Of a stretch of 32,028 nucleotides of DNA, positions 742 to 9,545 are shown piece by piece (position 1 is the first letter of the stretch; each line of letters opens with the position of its first letter). The notes beneath the pieces are model-generated. The model was not told where the DNA came from and made no database searches. It saw nothing but the letters and a program-made list of their open reading frames with translations. The position numbers and the translations under genes were made by a program. This stretch comes from an uncultured virus (IMG/VR IMGVR_UViG_3300025678_000930) (Duplodnaviria; Heunggongvirae; Uroviricota; Caudoviricetes): IMG/VR virus record IMGVR_UViG_3300025678_000930, one strand, 5' to 3'.

Positions 742-1920
742 ATGATTACTTATAAAACAGCTGAAAGTGTCTGTGCCGGACATCCCGATAAGCTTTGCGA
801 CCTCATTGCTGACAATATTCTAGATGCTTGTATGCATAAGGATAAAGCTTCACGTGTGGCCTGCGAGGTCATGGCTACCAAAGGCAAGATTATCGTAGCG
901 GGCGAAATCACCTGCAGCGGTAAAGTGGACATCCGTTTCATCGTAAAAAATGTACTTCGAGAGGTCGGATACAATCCGTGGAAATTCACAGTATTTGTAT
1001 TCGTGCACCATCAAAGCGCAGACATTGAAGCGGGTGTTAATAATGCACTTGAAGCAAGAAATGGTATCAATAATCCATATGGTTCTGTCGGCGCCGGAGA
1101 CCAAGGTACGGTTTACGGTTATGCAAGCAATGAAACCAGTAAGAACCTGCCCCTGCCACTGGTACTTTCCCATCGCATCGTAAAGCGCATTGATGACTGC
1201 CGCAAAGGAAAACTCATCAAAGGAATTCTGCCGGACGGAAAAGCACAGGTCACGGTAGAATATGAGGATGGTAAACCAAAGCGTGTGAAAACCATTGTAG
1301 TTTCAGTCCAGCATGATAAGGACAAAACCCAGGAAGAATTGAAGTCGGATATCCTTAGTAATGTACTTTGGCAGTGCTTTGAGGATTTTCCATTTGATGA
1401 TGATACTGAAATCCTTATTAATCCCTCAGGCAGATTTGTCGAAGGTGGTCCCGCTGCCGACACAGGCTTGACCGGCAGAAAAATCATGGTCGATACCTAC
1501 GGTGGCCTTGCATCCCACGGGGGAGGTGCCCTTTGCGGTAAGGACCCGACCAAGGTTGACCGAAGTGGTGCATATATGGCACGCTACATTGCAAAGAACA
1601 TTATTTGGAGCGGTCTTGCAGAGGAATGTGAGGTCGCTCTTTCTTATGCCATAGGAAAGGCAAATCCTGTGGCGGTTGATGTGACTTCCTTTGGTACAAG
1701 CAAACTCGCAGATGATCAGCTTTCCTATATTGTGCAGGAAGTATTTAACCTCCGACCTGCTGCAATCATCGAAAAATTACACTTAAGAAATGTCATCTAT
1801 TCCGATACGTCGGTTTACGGACATTTTAATTCAAGTCTGTTCCCCTGGGAGAATGTCAATATGTACACGAATTTAAGAAAGGCGGCTGAAATATATGCAG
1901 ATAGAAAAACTGAAAACTGA
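742..1920 (+). CDS. metK: S-adenosylmethionine synthetase (methionine adenosyltransferase)
   Basis: Signature motifs ESVxxGHPDK, GAGDQG, LINPSGRFVEGGPAADTGLTGRK, GGGALCGKDPTKVDRS; full length, 392 aa. Confidence 0.97.
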   Translation: MITYKTAESVCAGHPDKLCDLIADNILDACMHKDKASRVACEVMATKGKIIVAGEITCSGKVDIRFIVKNVLREVGYNPWKFTVFVFVHHQSADIEAGVNNALEARNGINNPYGSVGAGDQGTVYGYASNETSKNLPLPLVLSHRIVKRIDDCRKGKLIKGILPDGKAQVTVEYEDGKPKRVKTIVVSVQHDKDKTQEELKSDILSNVLWQCFEDFPFDDDTEILINPSGRFVEGGPAADTGLTGRKIMVDTYGGLASHGGGALCGKDPTKVDRSGAYMARYIAKNIIWSGLAEECEVALSYAIGKANPVAVDVTSFGTSKLADDQLSYIVQEVFNLRPAAIIEKLHLRNVIYSDTSVYGHFNSSLFPWENVNMYTNLRKAAEIYADRKTEN

Positions 1921-3139
1921 GTTGTTGATTCCAGCCGACTATAATCCACGTAAAGACTTGAAACCCGGTGACCCTGAATACGAAAAGCTGAAACGTTCCA
2001 TCGAGCAGTTCGGTTATGTTGAACCCGTTATATGGAATAAGACCACATCTCATGTTGTCGGTGGCCATCAGCGGTTGAAGGTGCTGTTAGATTTAGGCTT
2101 AACCGAAGTCGAGTGTGTGGTTATTGAAATGGATAAGGAAAAAGAGAAGGCGCTCAATATCGCCCTCAATAAAATAAGCGGTGACTGGGATAAAGATAAG
2201 TTGATGCTTTTGATTGCTGATTTGCAAGGTGCAGACTTTGACGTATCACTCACAGGATTCGAACCTGCTGAACTGGATGCACTATTTAAGGACTCGCTCA
2301 AGGACGGTATTCATGATGATGACTTCGATGTGGATGCTGAACTTAAAAAGCCTGCACTCACCAAACAAGGTGATGTTTGGAAACTCGGACAGCACAGGCT
2401 CGTCTGTGGTGATTCCACCAAGGCTGATACTTTTACACTTCTGATGGACGGCAAGCTCGCAAACCTTGTTGTAACGGACCCTCCGTACAATGTCAACTAT
2501 GAAGGATCGGCGGGTAAAATCAAAAACGATAACATGGAAAATGAAGCATTCTACGATTTTCTGCTGGCGGCTTTTCAAAACACCGAAGCAGCAATGGCGA
2601 AGGATGCTTCTATTTATGTGTTCCATGCAGATACTGAAGGTTTAAATTTCAGAAAGGCATTTTCTGATGCAGGTTTCTACCTCTCAGGTACTTGCATTTG
2701 GAAAAAGCAGTCACTGGTTCTTGGCCGCTCGCCTTATCAATGGCAGCATGAACCTGTTCTTTTCGGTTGGAAGAAGTCCGGCAAACATAACTGGTATGCC
2801 GATAGAAAGCAGACTACCATATGGGAATTTGAAAAGCCGAAGAAAAATGCAGACCATCCGACCATGAAACCGGTAGCTTTGGTTGCATACCCGATTCTCA
2901 ATAGCAGCTTGTCTAATTGTATCGTACTCGATCCCTTCGGTGGAAGTGGTTCTACCCTGATCGCCTGTGAACAGACGGACAGGATATGCCATACAATTGA
3001 ACTGGATGAAAAGTACTGTGATGTAATTGTAAAGAGGTATATCGAGCAGGTTGGAAATTCTAATGGTGTATTTCTTTTGAGAGATGCCTCGGAAATCCGA
3101 TACAGTGACCTGCCGGGGGTGAGTGCTGATGAAACATAA
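1895..3139 (+). CDS. ParB/Srx N-terminal domain fused to N6-adenine/N4-cytosine DNA methyltransferase (beta class)
   Basis: N-terminal YNPRK..FGYVEPVIWN..GGHQRL (ParB-like); catalytic DPPY precedes SAM-binding LDPFGGSGST; HPTMKPV. Confidence 0.93.
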   Translation: MQIEKLKTELLIPADYNPRKDLKPGDPEYEKLKRSIEQFGYVEPVIWNKTTSHVVGGHQRLKVLLDLGLTEVECVVIEMDKEKEKALNIALNKISGDWDKDKLMLLIADLQGADFDVSLTGFEPAELDALFKDSLKDGIHDDDFDVDAELKKPALTKQGDVWKLGQHRLVCGDSTKADTFTLLMDGKLANLVVTDPPYNVNYEGSAGKIKNDNMENEAFYDFLLAAFQNTEAAMAKDASIYVFHADTEGLNFRKAFSDAGFYLSGTCIWKKQSLVLGRSPYQWQHEPVLFGWKKSGKHNWYADRKQTTIWEFEKPKKNADHPTMKPVALVAYPILNSSLSNCIVLDPFGGSGSTLIACEQTDRICHTIELDEKYCDVIVKRYIEQVGNSNGVFLLRDASEIRYSDLPGVSADET

Positions 3140-4994
3140 ACTTACCCTTGGTTCTCTATTTGATGGCAGCGGAGGTTTTCCCTTGGGTGGTCTACTCTGT
3201 GGCATCGAGCCATTATGGGCATCCGAAATTGAACCCTTTCCTATAAGGGTTACTACAAAAAGGTTGCCTTTTATGAAACACTATGGTGATGTTTCCATCC
3301 TGGATGGCAGTAAGATGGAACCGGTTGATATTATAACATTTGGCTCACCTTGCCAGGATATGTCCGTGGCAGGTAAGCGTAATGGCTTGGACGGAGAGCG
3401 TTCAAGTCTTTTTTATGAGGCAATTAGAATTGTAAAAGAAATGAGGTGTGCTACAGATGGCGAATATCCAAGATACATCGTCTGGGAAAATGTGCCGGGT
3501 GCTTTCTCCTCAAACAAAGGAGAGGACTTCAGATGTGTCCTTGAAAGCATCTGTCACATCAAAGATAAAACCTTATCAGTTCCTAAAGCTGATAAATGGA
3601 GGCAAGCAGGTAATATCGTGGGAGATGATTTCTCCATTGCCTGGCGAGTGCTTGACGCTCAATACTGGGGAGTTCCCCAACGAAGAAAACGCATCTTCCT
3701 TGTCGCAGATTTTGCAGGTGGGAGTGCCGGAGAAATACTATTTAAGTCAGAAGGCTTGTCTGGGTATTCTAAGGAGAGCTTCCGCTCGTGGCAAGGAGCT
3801 GCCGATTGTTTTGAAAACGGCATTAGAGAGACAGGCACAAGCAGTGTGATTTTAAATGATCAAGGTGGCAATCGTATGGATATCACAGAAGATGTCACTT
3901 GTACTCTTCGAGCAGAGGCACATCATCCACCCTGTGTTATGGATGCAGCTGTTTTTGATAATCATGGGAGAGATACTCGCTTTACGGGACCGATTGATGT
4001 TGCACCAACAATATCTGCCACTTATGGAACAGGTGGCAATAATCAGCCTTTTGTGGTTGGTGATACACCGAAAACCCTCAAAATCCGTTGTGGCTGTGAG
4101 GGTGGTGGTAAAGGTGCACTTATCCAGAATAATAAATCAGCAACACTGTCATGCAATAATGACCAGACATTATTTGTTCCGAAAGCCTATGGTATCTGTT
4201 CAAAAGACAGCAATTCCATGAAATCATCCAATCCCAACAGTGGTGTGTATGAGGCTGATACTTCACGCACCATAGATGGAAATGGTGGAAATCCTTCCTG
4301 CAATCAAGGCGGAATTGCTATTGTGGAAAGTTATGCTTTGCAAGGCTCCATGATAGGCAGAAATGATAAGAACGGTCCACAGGGGGATGGAGTTAATGAG
4401 GATATTAGCTTTACTCTAAACACAGTTGATAAGCACGCTGTTGTTTATGCTATTGATAGAGAATCTTACAACTGTGGCCAAAACTATGCAAGGAATCTTG
4501 GGATTACAGAAGACGGAATATCATCAACACTAAATGCACAAGGGCCAAGTGCTGTGGCAACTCCTACCTACTCTTCAAGCAAGGCATCATTTTTTACTGC
4601 CGCTGAAGAAGAACTTGCAAATACGCTGGTTGCTACTGACTATAAAGACCCTCCGCTTATAAATGATACAGACGGCACTCTTTACACGGTCAGAAGATTA
4701 ACTCCGACCGAATGTGCAAGACTTCAAGGTTTCCCGGACGGGTGGTGCAGTGACCTTGGAACAGAAAACCCAACAATGGATGATTTACGCACATGGTATG
4801 GAATATTCGAAACTCATCGTAAGGTTACGGGAGGTTCATCTAAACCTAAGACCTTAAAGCAGATATCTAAGTGGCTTAAAGACCCGCATTCAGATTCTGC
4901 GGAATATAAGATGTGGGGCAACGGAGTGGCACTGCCTTGCGTATGTTTTGTTTTGTCCGGCATTGTGTTATCCATGCAAGATACCGCCGAATAA
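3129..4994 (+). CDS. C5-cytosine DNA methyltransferase with very long variable region (candidate multispecific)
   Basis: Motif I LFDGSGG, IV GSPCQ, VI WENVPG, VIII PQRRKRIF, IX RRLTPTECARLQGFP, X YKMWGNGV; ATG at 3129 preferred over GTG at 3123. Confidence 0.95.
   Translation: MKHKLTLGSLFDGSGGFPLGGLLCGIEPLWASEIEPFPIRVTTKRLPFMKHYGDVSILDGSKMEPVDIITFGSPCQDMSVAGKRNGLDGERSSLFYEAIRIVKEMRCATDGEYPRYIVWENVPGAFSSNKGEDFRCVLESICHIKDKTLSVPKADKWRQAGNIVGDDFSIAWRVLDAQYWGVPQRRKRIFLVADFAGGSAGEILFKSEGLSGYSKESFRSWQGAADCFENGIRETGTSSVILNDQGGNRMDITEDVTCTLRAEAHHPPCVMDAAVFDNHGRDTRFTGPIDVAPTISATYGTGGNNQPFVVGDTPKTLKIRCGCEGGGKGALIQNNKSATLSCNNDQTLFVPKAYGICSKDSNSMKSSNPNSGVYEADTSRTIDGNGGNPSCNQGGIAIVESYALQGSMIGRNDKNGPQGDGVNEDISFTLNTVDKHAVVYAIDRESYNCGQNYARNLGITEDGISSTLNAQGPSAVATPTYSSSKASFFTAAEEELANTLVATDYKDPPLINDTDGTLYTVRRLTPTECARLQGFPDGWCSDLGTENPTMDDLRTWYGIFETHRKVTGGSSKPKTLKQISKWLKDPHSDSAEYKMWGNGVALPCVCFVLSGIVLSMQDTAE
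3457..3849 (+). CDS. Nested alternative-frame ORF within the C5-MTase, resembling the N-terminal part of M.EcoHK31I polypeptide beta
   Basis: Open +1 frame; GAGGTG (3443-3448) lies 8 nt before ATG 3457; GECLTLNTGEFPNEENASSLSQIL...YYLSQKACLGILRRA...LP resembles the recalled EcoHK31I beta sequence. Confidence 0.7.
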   Translation: MANIQDTSSGKMCRVLSPQTKERTSDVSLKASVTSKIKPYQFLKLINGGKQVISWEMISPLPGECLTLNTGEFPNEENASSLSQILQVGVPEKYYLSQKACLGILRRASARGKELPIVLKTALERQAQAV

Positions 4995-5093: not shown

Positions 5094-5903
5094 ATGAAGA
5101 TTAATTACAATGTTACAGGTCCAAAACGAAAATTGCTGGTGGCAGCAATAAGCCAGGAACTAAATGCTCCAACAAAATACCTCGGAGCACCTACTTTTGC
5201 TTATGAGGTAGGCGGCTACCATATCGACAAGAATGGGATGCTCGAGGGTGAGGACAATCCTAACTTAGTTGCTGACCTGCAGGGATTGCATGACTTCAGA
5301 GCGATTACAGAAGAGTACGACACTCCACTTCCAGAATCAGAACCGGAAGCAGTTCCGGAGGATATCCAAATTCCTTACGAGGCAGCTCTTGGTGGCAGGG
5401 TCAGTCCTTACTGTGATTATGAGGAGCCACCCACATATGCAGAACCTGAGCAAAGTGGTGAGATCGAAACTAACCGTTTGACCATCGATTTGCCAAGGTC
5501 GGCATTCACCGATGTGGCTCTTGAAAACCTCAAGCGATTGGTAGAAAGCAAATCGTCTTTAATAAAAAAGGCTCTAGCTGCTGATTGCATCCCCATAATA
5601 ACAAACGAAGAAACAGTCAGTTTCCCCTGGTTTCAAGGGGAGCTTGTAGCTGAAGAGGTCAAAGCCTACACGCATTTTGTTACCGCACTCTGTGAGATGG
5701 CAAAAACACAGCAGAGAGTCAATGCCACCGAAAAGCAAGTCGAAAATGAGAAGTACGCTTTTCGCTGTTTTCTAATCCGACTCGGTTTCGTCGGCTCAGA
5801 ACACAAAGCAGAACGCAAAATCCTGCTAAAGAATCTATCAGGCAATGCTGCCTTTAAGAATGGGGCTCCACCAAAACCCGAGGAGGTAATGGCTGATGAA
5901 TAA
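5094..5903 (+). CDS. Phage 'virulence-related' hypothetical protein; degenerate amidoligase paralog
   Basis: C-terminus ENEKYAFRCFLIRLGFVG...LSGNAAFK aligns with the C-terminus of the amidoligase at 6272; catalytic motifs absent. Confidence 0.75.
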   Translation: MKINYNVTGPKRKLLVAAISQELNAPTKYLGAPTFAYEVGGYHIDKNGMLEGEDNPNLVADLQGLHDFRAITEEYDTPLPESEPEAVPEDIQIPYEAALGGRVSPYCDYEEPPTYAEPEQSGEIETNRLTIDLPRSAFTDVALENLKRLVESKSSLIKKALAADCIPIITNEETVSFPWFQGELVAEEVKAYTHFVTALCEMAKTQQRVNATEKQVENEKYAFRCFLIRLGFVGSEHKAERKILLKNLSGNAAFKNGAPPKPEEVMADE

Positions 5904-6271: not shown

Positions 6272-7171
6272 ATGTTAAGAACAAGGTTCGGAATTGAAAT
6301 TGAGTTCACAGGAATAACAAGAAACGAAGCGGCGAAAGTCACAGCCGACTACCTAAACGGAACGGTTGTGAGCACAGGAGACTATTACGATACCAAAAAG
6401 GTCACAGCCACCGACGGGCGAGTTTGGAAAATCATGAGCGACGGCAGCATCTCCTGCCAGAAGAAACAAGGACGGCGGAAGGTTGCAGCAACCAAAGAAT
6501 ATAGCGTGGAGCTGGTAAGTCCCATCCTGACCTACCAAGAGGACATTAAAACACTGCAGGAACTGATACGCAGGCTACGCGAGGCAGGAGCTTTCACAAA
6601 CAACTCCTGCGGAATCCATATCCACTTGGACGGAGCAGACCATACCTCAAGGAGCATACGAAACTTTGTAAACATCATCGCAAGCAAGAACGACCTTTTT
6701 TACAAGGCTTTGCAGATAGAACCTGAACGAATTCGTTACTGCAAAAAAATGGATGAGATTCTGGTGGAAAAAATCAATCGCAAGAAGCCAAAAACGCTGG
6801 CACAAATTGAGAGCCTTTGGTATGAGGGCTACAGCGAAAGTACCACCAGGCATTACCATTCAAGCCGATACCATTTCCTTAACCTGCACAGCTTTTTCAA
6901 CGGAAATCACACGGTAGAGCTTAGAGGTTTCAACAGCGAACTTCACGCAGGCAAGGTTAGAAGCTACATTGTTCTTGCCCTTGCACTGAACAACCAAGCA
7001 CTGACACAAAAGTGTGCATCGGCAAAGAAACCACAGGTGGAGAATGAAAAGTTTGCAATGCGGACCTACCTCAACCGAATCGGTTTCATCGGCGAGGAAT
7101 TCGCAAACTGCCGTGAACACTTGACCGCCCACTTGGACGGCTCGGCAGCTTGGCGGTTTCGGGCAGCCTAA
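6272..7171 (+). CDS. Putative amidoligase (Amidoligase_2, COOH-NH2 ligase superfamily)
   Basis: FGIEIEF, W...SDGSI, VELVSPIL, NSCGIHIH, RYHFLNLHS, TVELRGFN motifs. Confidence 0.9.
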   Translation: MLRTRFGIEIEFTGITRNEAAKVTADYLNGTVVSTGDYYDTKKVTATDGRVWKIMSDGSISCQKKQGRRKVAATKEYSVELVSPILTYQEDIKTLQELIRRLREAGAFTNNSCGIHIHLDGADHTSRSIRNFVNIIASKNDLFYKALQIEPERIRYCKKMDEILVEKINRKKPKTLAQIESLWYEGYSESTTRHYHSSRYHFLNLHSFFNGNHTVELRGFNSELHAGKVRSYIVLALALNNQALTQKCASAKKPQVENEKFAMRTYLNRIGFIGEEFANCREHLTAHLDGSAAWRFRAA

Positions 7172-7206
7172 AGGGTTGCCCAGCAAATATAAGGAGGATA
7201 AGGTCT

Positions 7207-7656
7207 ATGAGTAAAACATTCTATCTCGCCTATGGCTCAAACCTCAACCTTGAGCAAATGGCGTACCGTTGCCCCACAGCAAAGCCTATCGGCACGGTTG
7301 TTTTAAAGGATTACCAGTTATTGTTCAGAGGTGGACACGGCGGTGCTGTGGCAACCGTGGAGCCTTTAAAAGGCAAGACAGTCCCATGCTTGCTATGGGA
7401 GATTACCCTGGCTGATGAAACAGCACTTGACCGCTATGAGGGCTATCCATTCCTTTATCGAAAGGAAATGGTCAAAGTCAAATATGGCAAAAAGAACGTA
7501 GAAACCATGGTGTACATCATGAACGAAGGCAGGCCTCTTGGAACTCCAAGCTGCTATTATTACAGTGTTATCTTAGAGGGATATAAGAGTGCAAACTTCG
7601 ATATCGGTATTCTAAAACAGGCCGTAGAGGATTCAAAGGAGGACAAAAATGGATAA
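7207..7656 (+). CDS. Gamma-glutamylcyclotransferase (AIG2-like) family protein
   Basis: YLAYGSNL, RCPTA, LDRYEGYP..Y motifs; AGGAGG RBS before ATG 7207. Confidence 0.92.
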   Translation: MSKTFYLAYGSNLNLEQMAYRCPTAKPIGTVVLKDYQLLFRGGHGGAVATVEPLKGKTVPCLLWEITLADETALDRYEGYPFLYRKEMVKVKYGKKNVETMVYIMNEGRPLGTPSCYYYSVILEGYKSANFDIGILKQAVEDSKEDKNG

Positions 7657-7828: not shown

Positions 7829-7894
7829 ATAACTAAAACCTAACAAGAGAACAGTGCCAATAACGGCTCTGTTTCTCGTACAAATAGATTATGA

Positions 7895-7920
7895 AGGCTT
7901 GCATATGCAGGTCTATTTTT
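7895..7920 (+). terminator. Possible intrinsic terminator upstream of terL
   Basis: Stem AGGCTTGC/GCAGGTCT (with G-U pairs) followed by ATTTTT; a second hairpin at 7847-7877. Confidence 0.4.
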
Positions 7921-7943
7921 ATGCTCGGAAGGAGGTGGCGGAT

Positions 7944-9545
7944 ATACGGAAACTCAAGAAATACACACCAACAATATTTAAGGCGGCTGATTCGGTCTAT
8001 GATAAGTCTTATGCAGATTATGCCGTGTCCTTTATAGAGGCTTTATCTCATACCAAAGGTACATGGGCGGGGAAACCTTTTGAACTAATAGATTGGCAAG
8101 AGAAGATCATCCGTGATGTATTTGGGATTATTAAGCCAAATGGCTATCGGCAGTTCAATACTGCTTATGTAGAAATACCAAAGAAGATGGGAAAAAGTGA
8201 GCTTGCGGCGGCTGTTGCCCTGTTGCTCACCTGTGGAGATAACGAGGAACGAGCTGAGGTTTATGGCTGTGCTGCCGACCGCAATCAGGCATCCATAGTA
8301 TTTAATGTTGCGGCGGACATGGTGCGAATGAGTCCGGCTTTATCTAAACGAGTTAAGATCCTAGATTCCACAAAGAGGCTCATCTATCAACCTACAGGCA
8401 GTATTTATCAAGTACTGTCAGCCGATGTCAGCAACAAGCATGGTTTCAACACTCATGGTGTGGTGTTTGATGAACTGCATACCCAACCGAATAGAAAACT
8501 CTACGATGTTATGACCAAAGGCAGTGGTGATGCAAGAATGCAGCCGCTGTATTTCCTTATAACCACTGCAGGAGACAATCAGAACAGCATCTGTTGGGAA
8601 GTACACCAGAAGGCACTAGATATCATAAATGGCAGAAAGAAAGACCCCACTTTCTATCCAGTTATATACGGAGCTGCCGTTGAGGATGACTGGACTGACC
8701 CAAAGATATGGAAGAAAGCGAATCCATCACTCGGCATTACAGTCAGTATGGATAAGGTCAAAGCAGCCTTTGAATCAGCAAGGCAGAATCCTGCTGAAGA
8801 GAACAGTTTTAGGCAGCTTCGTCTTAACCAATGGGTCAAACAGGCAGTACGCTGGATGCCTATGGAAAAATGGGATGCCTGTGCATTTGCTGTTGATCCC
8901 GAATCACTTCGAGGACGAATCTGCTACGGGGGACTTGACCTCTCCAGCAGTACAGATATTACGGCTTTTGTGCTGGTCTTTCCTCCAATAGATGAAGATG
9001 ATAAATATGTTGTTCTTCCATTCTTCTGGATACCGGAGGACAATATTGATTTGCGTGTCCGGCGGGATCATGTTAATTACGATGTATGGAAGAAGCAAGG
9101 ATTTCTTAAAACTACAGAAGGCAATGTAGTGCATTACGGATTCATTGAAACCTTCATTGAAGAACTTGGAACAAAATATAACATCCGCGAGATTGCTTTT
9201 GACCGCTGGGGTGCTGTGCAAATGACCCAGAATCTAGAGAACCTTGGTTTTACAGTTGTTCCTTTCGGTCAAGGATTTAAAGATATGTCTCCACCAACCA
9301 AAGAATTGATGAAACTGACATTGGAACAGAAAATTGCTCATGGTGGGCATCCGATTCTTCGCTGGATGATGGATAACATCTATATTCGAACAGATCCTGC
9401 CGGAAACATCAAAGCAGACAAGGAAAAGTCAACCGAGAAGATTGACGGTGCAGTAGCAACCATCATGGCTCTTGATAGAGCGATAAGGTGTGGTGGAGGA
9501 ACAGGTTCATCGGTTTATGATGATAGGGGTCTGCTTATTTTTTAG
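7944..9545 (+). CDS. terL: Terminase large subunit (start uncertain, probably ATA at 7944)
   Basis: Walker A IPKKMGKSEL, Walker B VVFDELH, ITTAG, nuclease GGLDLSSSTD and KIDGAVA; AGGAGG at 7930-7935. Confidence 0.95.
   Translation: MRKLKKYTPTIFKAADSVYDKSYADYAVSFIEALSHTKGTWAGKPFELIDWQEKIIRDVFGIIKPNGYRQFNTAYVEIPKKMGKSELAAAVALLLTCGDNEERAEVYGCAADRNQASIVFNVAADMVRMSPALSKRVKILDSTKRLIYQPTGSIYQVLSADVSNKHGFNTHGVVFDELHTQPNRKLYDVMTKGSGDARMQPLYFLITTAGDNQNSICWEVHQKALDIINGRKKDPTFYPVIYGAAVEDDWTDPKIWKKANPSLGITVSMDKVKAAFESARQNPAEENSFRQLRLNQWVKQAVRWMPMEKWDACAFAVDPESLRGRICYGGLDLSSSTDITAFVLVFPPIDEDDKYVVLPFFWIPEDNIDLRVRRDHVNYDVWKKQGFLKTTEGNVVHYGFIETFIEELGTKYNIREIAFDRWGAVQMTQNLENLGFTVVPFGQGFKDMSPPTKELMKLTLEQKIAHGGHPILRWMMDNIYIRTDPAGNIKADKEKSTEKIDGAVATIMALDRAIRCGGGTGSSVYDDRGLLIF

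Follow-up and report, generated by a model that had tools for sequence, protein, structure and literature searches.

The window analysed here, a stretch of 32,028 nucleotides (nt) from an uncultured virus of the Caudoviricetes (IMG/VR record IMGVR_UViG_3300025678_000930), carries the gene for a single-chain C5 DNA cytosine methyltransferase (MTase) inside which, in the +1 frame, there lies a second open reading frame (ORF). The nested ORF is a real gene and its product is under purifying selection, because the +1 protein, the signals for its translation and the boundaries of its reading frame are all conserved across diverged relatives. The layout as such is known already from one enzyme (EcoHK31I, 1995) and is annotated in phage MM1. 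What is new is that a complete, ten-motif, single-chain MTase retains, under strong selection, a nested gene for a docking-type module alone. The nested product, overlooked by routine annotation, is probably a small helper subunit.

The nested gene, from its ATG at 3457 to its stop at 3849, is contained wholly within the MTase gene (3129-4994), and the distance between the two starts, (3457-3129) mod 3 = 1, places it in the +1 frame. The list of ORFs gives it as 3448..3849 on the + strand, that is, as 133 amino acids (aa) counted from a GTG; from the ATG there are 130. A first-pass annotation, made from the letters alone, had described the ORF by its coordinates, by its 130 codons in the +1 frame and by a GAGGTG 8 nt upstream of ATG 3457, all of which we confirm. 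Equally correct was its statement that the ORF overlaps catalytic motifs (VI and VIII; Table 1) and stops where the variable region of the MTase begins: the stop directly precedes the first conserved block (consensus LNDQGG) of the target recognition domains (TRDs). Upstream, the frame is bounded by a TGA that stands at the same place in relatives (69 of 70 viral loci).

Conservation of the frame was assessed in two sets of relatives. The first comprises 80 related loci from species-representative genomes (49-96% protein identity), among which 73 sequences (72 loci and the window) cover the region. The +1 frame runs open for 133-142 codons in 72 of these 73 and for 181 codons in one; in 69 an ATG is found four codons past the upstream stop, and the +1 motif G-I-L-x-R-A-x3-G-K is conserved in relatives exactly 88 nt after motif VIII. 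The frame is therefore stop-free across homologs and not frequently interrupted, which was one of the checks that the first-pass annotation had suggested. Because two of the six search patterns used for this set fell inside the overlap, a second set of 80 loci was gathered from viral contigs through the motif IX region only, and 70 of them contain motif VIII as well as motif IX. The +1 anchor motif is present in every one of these 70. The +1 frame is open for at least 120 codons in 66 (of the remaining four, three run off the end of the contig), the ATG is at the same place in 63, a Shine-Dalgarno-like sequence is present in 65, and an ORF of 129-141 aa is found in 68.

Openness of the +1 frame in one sequence alone is weak evidence. 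When the main frame of the window was reshuffled synonymously the +1 frame stayed open as long in 7.85% of trials (P 0.0785), and across 42 loci a median of 15% of trials kept it equally open. The comparative evidence is strong, and it begins with the start signals, which are in themselves constraints on synonymous sites. The main-frame Arg codon that forms the Shine-Dalgarno sequence (and the TGA) is AGG in 39 of 42 non-redundant loci, as against 13% AGG elsewhere, and the base that forms the nested ATG is T in 41 of the 42, whereas only 56% of comparable codons elsewhere have a T there.

Selection on the +1 protein is evident from the entropy of main-frame third positions, calculated for 42 sequences less than 85% identical in DNA and compared by Mann-Whitney tests. 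Upstream of the nested ORF the entropy is 1.44 bits; it drops to 1.12 bits in the first part of the ORF (3457-3696; P 2.4e-7) and to 0.43 bits in the last part (3699-3846; P 4e-17), and directly after the nested stop it stands at 1.61 bits. The fall thus covers the last ~50 codons of the ORF and rebounds right past its stop, and the suppressed synonymous variation that the first-pass annotation had suggested looking for is present. Codons of conserved four-fold families follow the same course (1.68, 1.17, 0.50 and 1.74 bits upstream, in the first part, in the last part and downstream). Within the last part the entropies at main-frame positions 1, 2 and 3 are 0.85, 0.33 and 0.43: the most variable site is the first base of the main frame, which is the wobble position of the +1 frame. 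Mean pairwise amino acid identity in this part is 0.80 for the +1 frame versus 0.59 for the main frame (153 gap-free pairs), and in the first part 0.47 versus 0.69 (861 pairs). At invariant +1 residues, for example A100, L105, R107, K113, P116, L119 and A122, between 2-5 synonymous codons are in use, and the main-frame residue that overlaps them is free to change. The result was replicated with 41 non-redundant viral loci that exclude the window (1.43, 1.13, 0.48 and 1.60 bits; P 5e-17 for the last part and 2.3e-7 for the first).

The encoded protein has two parts. The leader, residues 1-38, is under weak constraint, is predicted to be disordered and has no counterpart in a relative, locus L244 (see below), whose module is encoded without overlap. 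The conserved domain that follows is made up, in order, of strands at 40-44 and 54-58, a GE..LN.GE.P loop, the motifs LSQIL and YYLS, and helices at 98-111 and 117-128; the two C-terminal helices correspond to nt 3748-3840. In the main frame, the variable linker that underlies 3699-3846 precedes the first TRD module.

Searches of Pfam and NCBIfam returned no family for the nested protein (only match, DUF1093 at E 0.19), and its sole library match is phrog_16143, 'DNA methyltransferase' (E 1.4e-7). A profile search of the PDB with the nested family gave no match at E<=10, and a search of the ESM Atlas gave only clusters of unnamed 'hypothetical protein'. The family is very large: a profile of 60 members finds 4792 cluster representatives (at 50% identity) at E<=1e-3 and 3369 at E<=1e-10. 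Database matches fall into three classes: stand-alone proteins of ~130 aa (119 of the 120 near-length matches listed); proteins of ~240 aa in which the N-terminal part of an MTase switches into the nested frame (55 of the 120 longer matches listed, P0121-P0240); and proteins in which the domain comes first and is followed by TRD modules and motifs IX and X (38 of the 120 longer matches listed).

Members of the third class are the closing subunits of two-chain MTases. To place them we refer to 70 domain-carrying loci, examined at the DNA level for the frame of motifs VIII and IX. In 69 of the 70 the neighbouring frame carries motif VIII, 88 nt upstream. Of these 69, 45 resemble the window in having motif IX in the main frame; in 16 motif IX was found in neither frame; and the remaining eight (L166, L167, L168, L204, L217, L218, L226 and L236) encode overlapping two-chain enzymes, in which the main frame terminates shortly past motif VIII and motif IX is reached in the +1 frame instead. 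These two-chain relatives thus have the same module as the window at the same place with respect to motif VIII (88 nt downstream in +1), but in them it continues into TRDs and motifs IX and X as a closing subunit, whereas in the window the closing part and the catalytic half make up one chain. The nested profile and an alignment of the closing subunits match over 126 columns (hhalign E 2.6e-53) and share the same invariant residues.

The seventieth locus, L244, has a gene for a catalytic half (1314-2276) followed, with an overlap of 4 nt, by a gene for a closing subunit of 394 aa. At the N-terminus of this subunit is the nested-type module (50% identity over residues 39-127, E 1e-20), and inside the catalytic half of this system (L244 1314-3457) no such module is found in the +1 frame. 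Because L244 encodes the module un-nested, the nested domain can be taken as a genuine protein module that is encodable without overlap. In a quick tree of catalytic halves, the clade of the window holds 98 rows, of which 85 are single-chain, 13 undetermined and none two-chain; the six two-chain rows of the tree fall in a sister clade of 24 rows (support from the Shimodaira-Hasegawa-like approximate likelihood ratio test, SH-aLRT, only). M.AquI, as described in PMC3404938, is a two-chain C5-MTase, and it is by that description that we liken these enzymes to it.

The best-described precedent is M.EcoHK31I of E. coli HK31, which recognises YGGCCR and whose layout was reported by Lee, Kam and Shaw in 1995, as described in passages of PMC2836561 and PMC3404938. 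In these accounts the beta chain is encoded wholly in another frame of the alpha gene, alpha contains motifs I-VIII, the TRD and motif X, beta supplies motif IX, and both chains are needed for activity; the two-chain description in the first-pass annotation agrees with them. Loss of at least 42 N-terminal residues of beta abolishes activity through weakened association (Fung 2006, as cited in the passages of PMC2836561). Residues 35-75 of beta could be read from the truncation primers in Supplementary Tables S1 and S3 of the same paper. Set against the nested protein by eye, without gaps and with no E-value, beta 46-75 matches residues 63-92 at 12 of 30 positions, in the pattern G-E ... N-T-x-E-x-P ... 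L-S-Q-[VI]-L ... P, and an upstream Trp of beta matches at an offset of one residue; over the same primer-derived stretch, family members such as P0126 match beta better than the window protein does. The likeness to the N-terminal part of beta, to which the first-pass annotation had pointed, is therefore supported for the stretch compared, beta 46-75.

The window resembles EcoHK31I in that the whole of a second polypeptide is encoded out of frame within a C5-MTase gene. It differs in that the main frame itself supplies motifs IX and X and that the nested protein ends before the TRDs and motif IX, whereas beta carries motif IX, which alpha lacks. The first-pass annotation was right to place motif IX in the main frame. 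A notion that the nested YYLS.KAC.GILRRA might be a copy of motif IX was rejected, as hhalign gave the nested profile a probability of 0.1% against the MTase's own motif IX/X region. Beta is probably longer than the nested protein, because a plasmid name, C23, suggests a chain of about 23 kDa.

On balance we favour the view that the nested product is a small, obligatory subunit that binds the MTase in trans and stabilises or completes the enzyme. The MTase mRNA would carry a second cistron at 3457-3849 in the +1 frame, on which ribosomes, to judge by the conserved Shine-Dalgarno sequence and ATG, would initiate internally. The product would consist of the disordered leader and a conserved domain of ~90 residues ending in a helical hairpin. 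This domain is the same module as the N-terminus of the closing subunits (module, TRDs and motifs IX/X) and the N-terminal part of beta. In two-chain enzymes the module presumably docks the closing subunit onto the catalytic half, which fits the role of the N-terminal part of beta. In the window phage the TRDs and motifs IX/X belong to the main-frame chain, together with the catalytic half, and the module would accordingly be made alone; by analogy with the two-chain enzymes, the free module may then bind the catalytic half in trans, at the docking site, and affect activity. An integral role is preferred to an optional one because the module is retained in every single-chain relative examined.

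Several points weigh against this reading. With its full set of ten motifs the main MTase may be active by itself, and so it has no gap that the module would have to fill. Structure prediction lends little help: modelled alone with AlphaFold2, the nested protein reaches a predicted local distance difference test score (pLDDT) of 59.9 and is confident only over ~95-130, the last two helices, and a natural closing subunit alone is uninformative (pLDDT 49.1). Versions from streptococcal phages (including MM1, L085 2632-3057) match only residues ~36-105 and seemingly have no hairpin, which means that the most conserved part of the module is not universal. Finally, the role of beta in association is known only through the citation of Fung 2006 in the passages of PMC2836561, and the match to beta is one made by eye over ~40 residues and carries no statistic.

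A free docking module could instead act as a regulator or decoy, occupying the site on the catalytic half and so tuning its activity or blocking the assembly of two-chain enzymes of phages that share the host or compete with it. The module is of a docking type with neither a catalytic nor a DNA-reading part, the main enzyme is complete without it, and two-chain relatives occur in the same bacterial groups, all of which would suit such a part; we consider it unlikely, however, since the module is kept in 70 of 70 single-chain-type loci, which fits an integral component better than an optional regulator. It is less probable again that the free module is a weapon or a switch, taking up the docking site on catalytic halves and so barring closing subunits, be it in the two-chain enzymes of rival phages or by shutting out alternative partners of the phage's own enzyme. 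Were that so, it would add a dominant-negative layer to phage-phage and phage-host methylation conflicts, in thousands of MTase genes that include P1 dmt. An overprinted gene whose function has nothing to do with the MTase, such as DNA binding or anti-defence, would account for the basic character of the protein (pI 9.4), for a helical hairpin rich in Arg and Lys and for the lack of a Pfam, NCBIfam or PDB relative in our searches. We think this improbable, given that in relatives the closing subunits of MTases, and likewise EcoHK31I beta, contain the module within their own chains, and that 69 of 70 loci have it inside a C5-MTase gene and the seventieth directly after one.

The other explanations concern whether the +1 sequence is an independent gene at all. 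The ~240-aa proteins could mean that its sole product is a fusion, made when ribosomes undergo programmed frameshifting out of the N-terminal part of the MTase, and such joined sequences are what the second database class consists of. Their junctions (60 proteins) are nevertheless scattered from 3446 to 3683 with no single slippery site, such fusions would be without motifs VI-VIII, and the conserved Shine-Dalgarno sequence and ATG favour independent initiation; programmed fusion is very unlikely. Because the junctions are scattered, these proteins are best read as independent frameshifts or sequencing errors and not as products of one programmed site; the entries may be inactivated genes or the result of homopolymer errors. 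Little credence can be given either to the idea that the frame is a functionless relic, which happens to have stayed open since two once-separate chains were joined into one. Two-chain forms do exist in the sister clade, and by synonymous reshuffling an open +1 frame is not rare in a single sequence given the main-frame protein (median P 0.15), but a relic would not show strong purifying selection on its protein, nor start signals conserved across loci less than 85% identical in DNA. A non-coding constraint within the MTase gene, be it RNA structure or a DNA site, could alone cause suppressed synonymous variation, yet it scarcely deserves consideration here: the variation has +1 codon periodicity, with peak entropy at the +1 wobble and synonymous codons at invariant residues, and the same protein is encoded without overlap in L244. 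It is because of this periodicity that an RNA or DNA element and a dead relic are both rejected.

Long same-strand nested genes in bacteria and phages are rarely accepted and are discarded by annotation pipelines; here the comparative proof is unusually clean. If the product is indeed a subunit, then orphan phage C5-MTases cloned, assayed or employed as tools from the annotated ORF alone carry a second, untracked protein, which would be lost if such genes were silently recoded or codon-optimised. The window also poses a sharper question than EcoHK31I does: why a docking module is kept when the enzyme is complete in one chain.

The nested arrangement is widespread. A tblastn search with the nested protein matched 209 phage records and 531 plasmid records, the latter mainly P1-like plasmids of E. 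coli, where the match lies under the dmt gene. Three annotated coding sequences (CDSs) for a C5-MTase, those of P7 (dam/dmt), Mycobacterium phage Porcelain (gp116) and Burkholderia phage Bcep22 (gp25), contain the match in their +1 frame, which is open for 156-165 codons; with the +1 frame of P7 dam/dmt the nested protein shares 46% identity (E 2e-23). The main proteins of P7 and Bcep22 resemble that of the window in having motifs IX and X in frame. All three differ from it in that their hosts belong to other phyla and their leaders are different; moreover, unlike in the window, the C5 domain of P7 is fused to a Dam domain and the MTase of Porcelain is annotated as two genes. Family members are found in prophages of Bacillota, in mycobacteriophages, in phages of Burkholderia and Vibrio and in the P1 family.

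The expectation that annotation pipelines would miss the nested gene holds for these three records, none of which has a nested CDS annotated, but not for Streptococcus pneumoniae phage MM1 (AJ302074), whose record lists both an ORF13 ('putative DNA methylase') and, within it in the +1 frame, an ORF14 ('putative methyltransferase'). ORF14 is homologous to residues 45-97 of the nested protein (38% identity, E 1e-7); it differs from the window protein in that it ends soon after the YFLS motif and is without the helical hairpin, and it is known from the annotation of the record only. Our literature search for the wider family found only papers on the engineering and complementation of EcoHK31I, and the available text of a 2025 review of restriction-modification (PMC12707154) makes no mention of EcoHK31I.

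Classical overprinted phage genes include B, K and E of phiX174 and Rz1 of lambda. Like these, the nested gene is disordered in its newer frame where the older frame is constrained and structured where it lies over a tolerant linker. It is unlike them in that both products belong to one enzyme system and in that its module also occurs un-nested, in L244.

The features of the two genes are collected in Table 1.

Table 1. Positions of the MTase genes of the window, their motifs and the parts and signals of the nested gene.
Feature	Position	Strand	Remarks
ParB_N + N6/N4 DNA methyltransferase, upstream neighbour	1895..3139	+	PF01555 E 5.9e-28; PF02195 E 5.7e-6
C5 DNA cytosine MTase, single chain, 621 aa	3129..4994	+	ATG 3129; open frame itself begins at GTG 3123
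C5-MTase motif I	3159-3176	+	main frame
C5-MTase motif IV (PCQ)	3348-3356	+	main frame
TGA of the +1 frame bounding the nested ORF upstream	3442..3444	+	made by main-frame ATG-AGG (Met-Arg)
Shine-Dalgarno-like GAGGTG, 8 nt before the ATG	3443..3448	+	needs the rare main-frame Arg codon AGG
Nested gene, 130 aa + stop, pI 9.4	3457..3849	+	kept as ORF and as protein
Leader rich in Ser/Thr/Lys/Pro, residues 1-38	3457..3570	+	45% S+T+K+P; over the motif VI region
C5-MTase motif VI (ENV)	3486-3494	+	main frame; overlapped by the nested ORF
Conserved domain, residues 39-130	3571..3846	+	invariant columns in 60 sequences
C5-MTase motif VIII (QRRKR)	3678-3692	+	main frame; overlapped by the nested ORF
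Stretch with selection mainly on the +1 frame	3699..3846	+	main frame: end of motif VIII region and variable linker
C5-MTase motif IX	4692-4739	+	main frame
C5-MTase motif X	4917-4937	+	main frame

The main protein is recognised by PF00145 (C-5 cytosine-specific DNA methylase) at E 4.5e-42 (145.1 bits against a cut-off of 22) and by TIGR00675 at E 1.2e-35, with PHROG matches to phrog_38038 and phrog_116. Motifs I-X are all found in one open frame, so this is not a two-chain enzyme of the M.AquI kind. Between motif VIII and motif IX there is a long, multi-module variable region; at 3850-4690 (~280 residues) it contains several conserved modules of the '...TL...' kind. These modules suggest that the enzyme may be multispecific, like MTases of Bacillus phages.

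The window is a siphovirus-type prophage that encodes the small and large subunits of terminase, a portal protein, a protease, a major head protein and tail proteins, together with an endolysin, an exonuclease, a DNA polymerase and a serine integrase. Upstream of the C5-MTase gene, and overlapping its start by 11 nt at its own 3' end, is the gene for the N6/N4 MTase. Both MTase genes are located between the genes for the small (171-722) and large (7854-9545) terminase subunits and, because of this position, they are probably expressed together with the packaging genes. The insert between the terminase genes also contains two amidoligase-like paralogues (5094-5903 and 6272-7171; phrog_2443) and a gene like those for gamma-glutamyl cyclotransferase (7150-7656).

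A promoter scan of the window performed at chance (8 sites versus 7.5 expected) and gave no promoter-like site on the + strand between 3107 and the nested start. Sequencing runs recorded as RNA, or guessed to be so, contained at most 0.19 of the words sampled. A scan for terminator-like sites found 6, versus 3.4 +/- 2.0 expected. One of them is inside the MTase gene: a hairpin of 10 pairs followed by TTTTTTAT, at 3384-3418, lies ~35 nt 5' of the nested Shine-Dalgarno sequence. Its T run may be a chance product, since it follows from the conserved residues Leu-Phe-Tyr.

Some minor observations concern the database relatives. Eight of the junctions in the ~240-aa proteins are near the CCGGG of motif VI. 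In another group (P0125, P0139, P0155 and P0325) the nested module stands behind unrelated proteins, namely a ParB-MTase, an integrase and DNA polymerase I, and in P0325 no stop separates a closing subunit from motif I of the MTase that comes next; each of these joined proteins could reflect a deletion, an assembly chimera or a real fusion. A search for related loci with P0299 returned none and with P0160 one distant locus. In a distant relative (L081 2119-3799) the MTase is split into two ORFs in the TRD region, and the nested ORF, of 135 codons, is intact.

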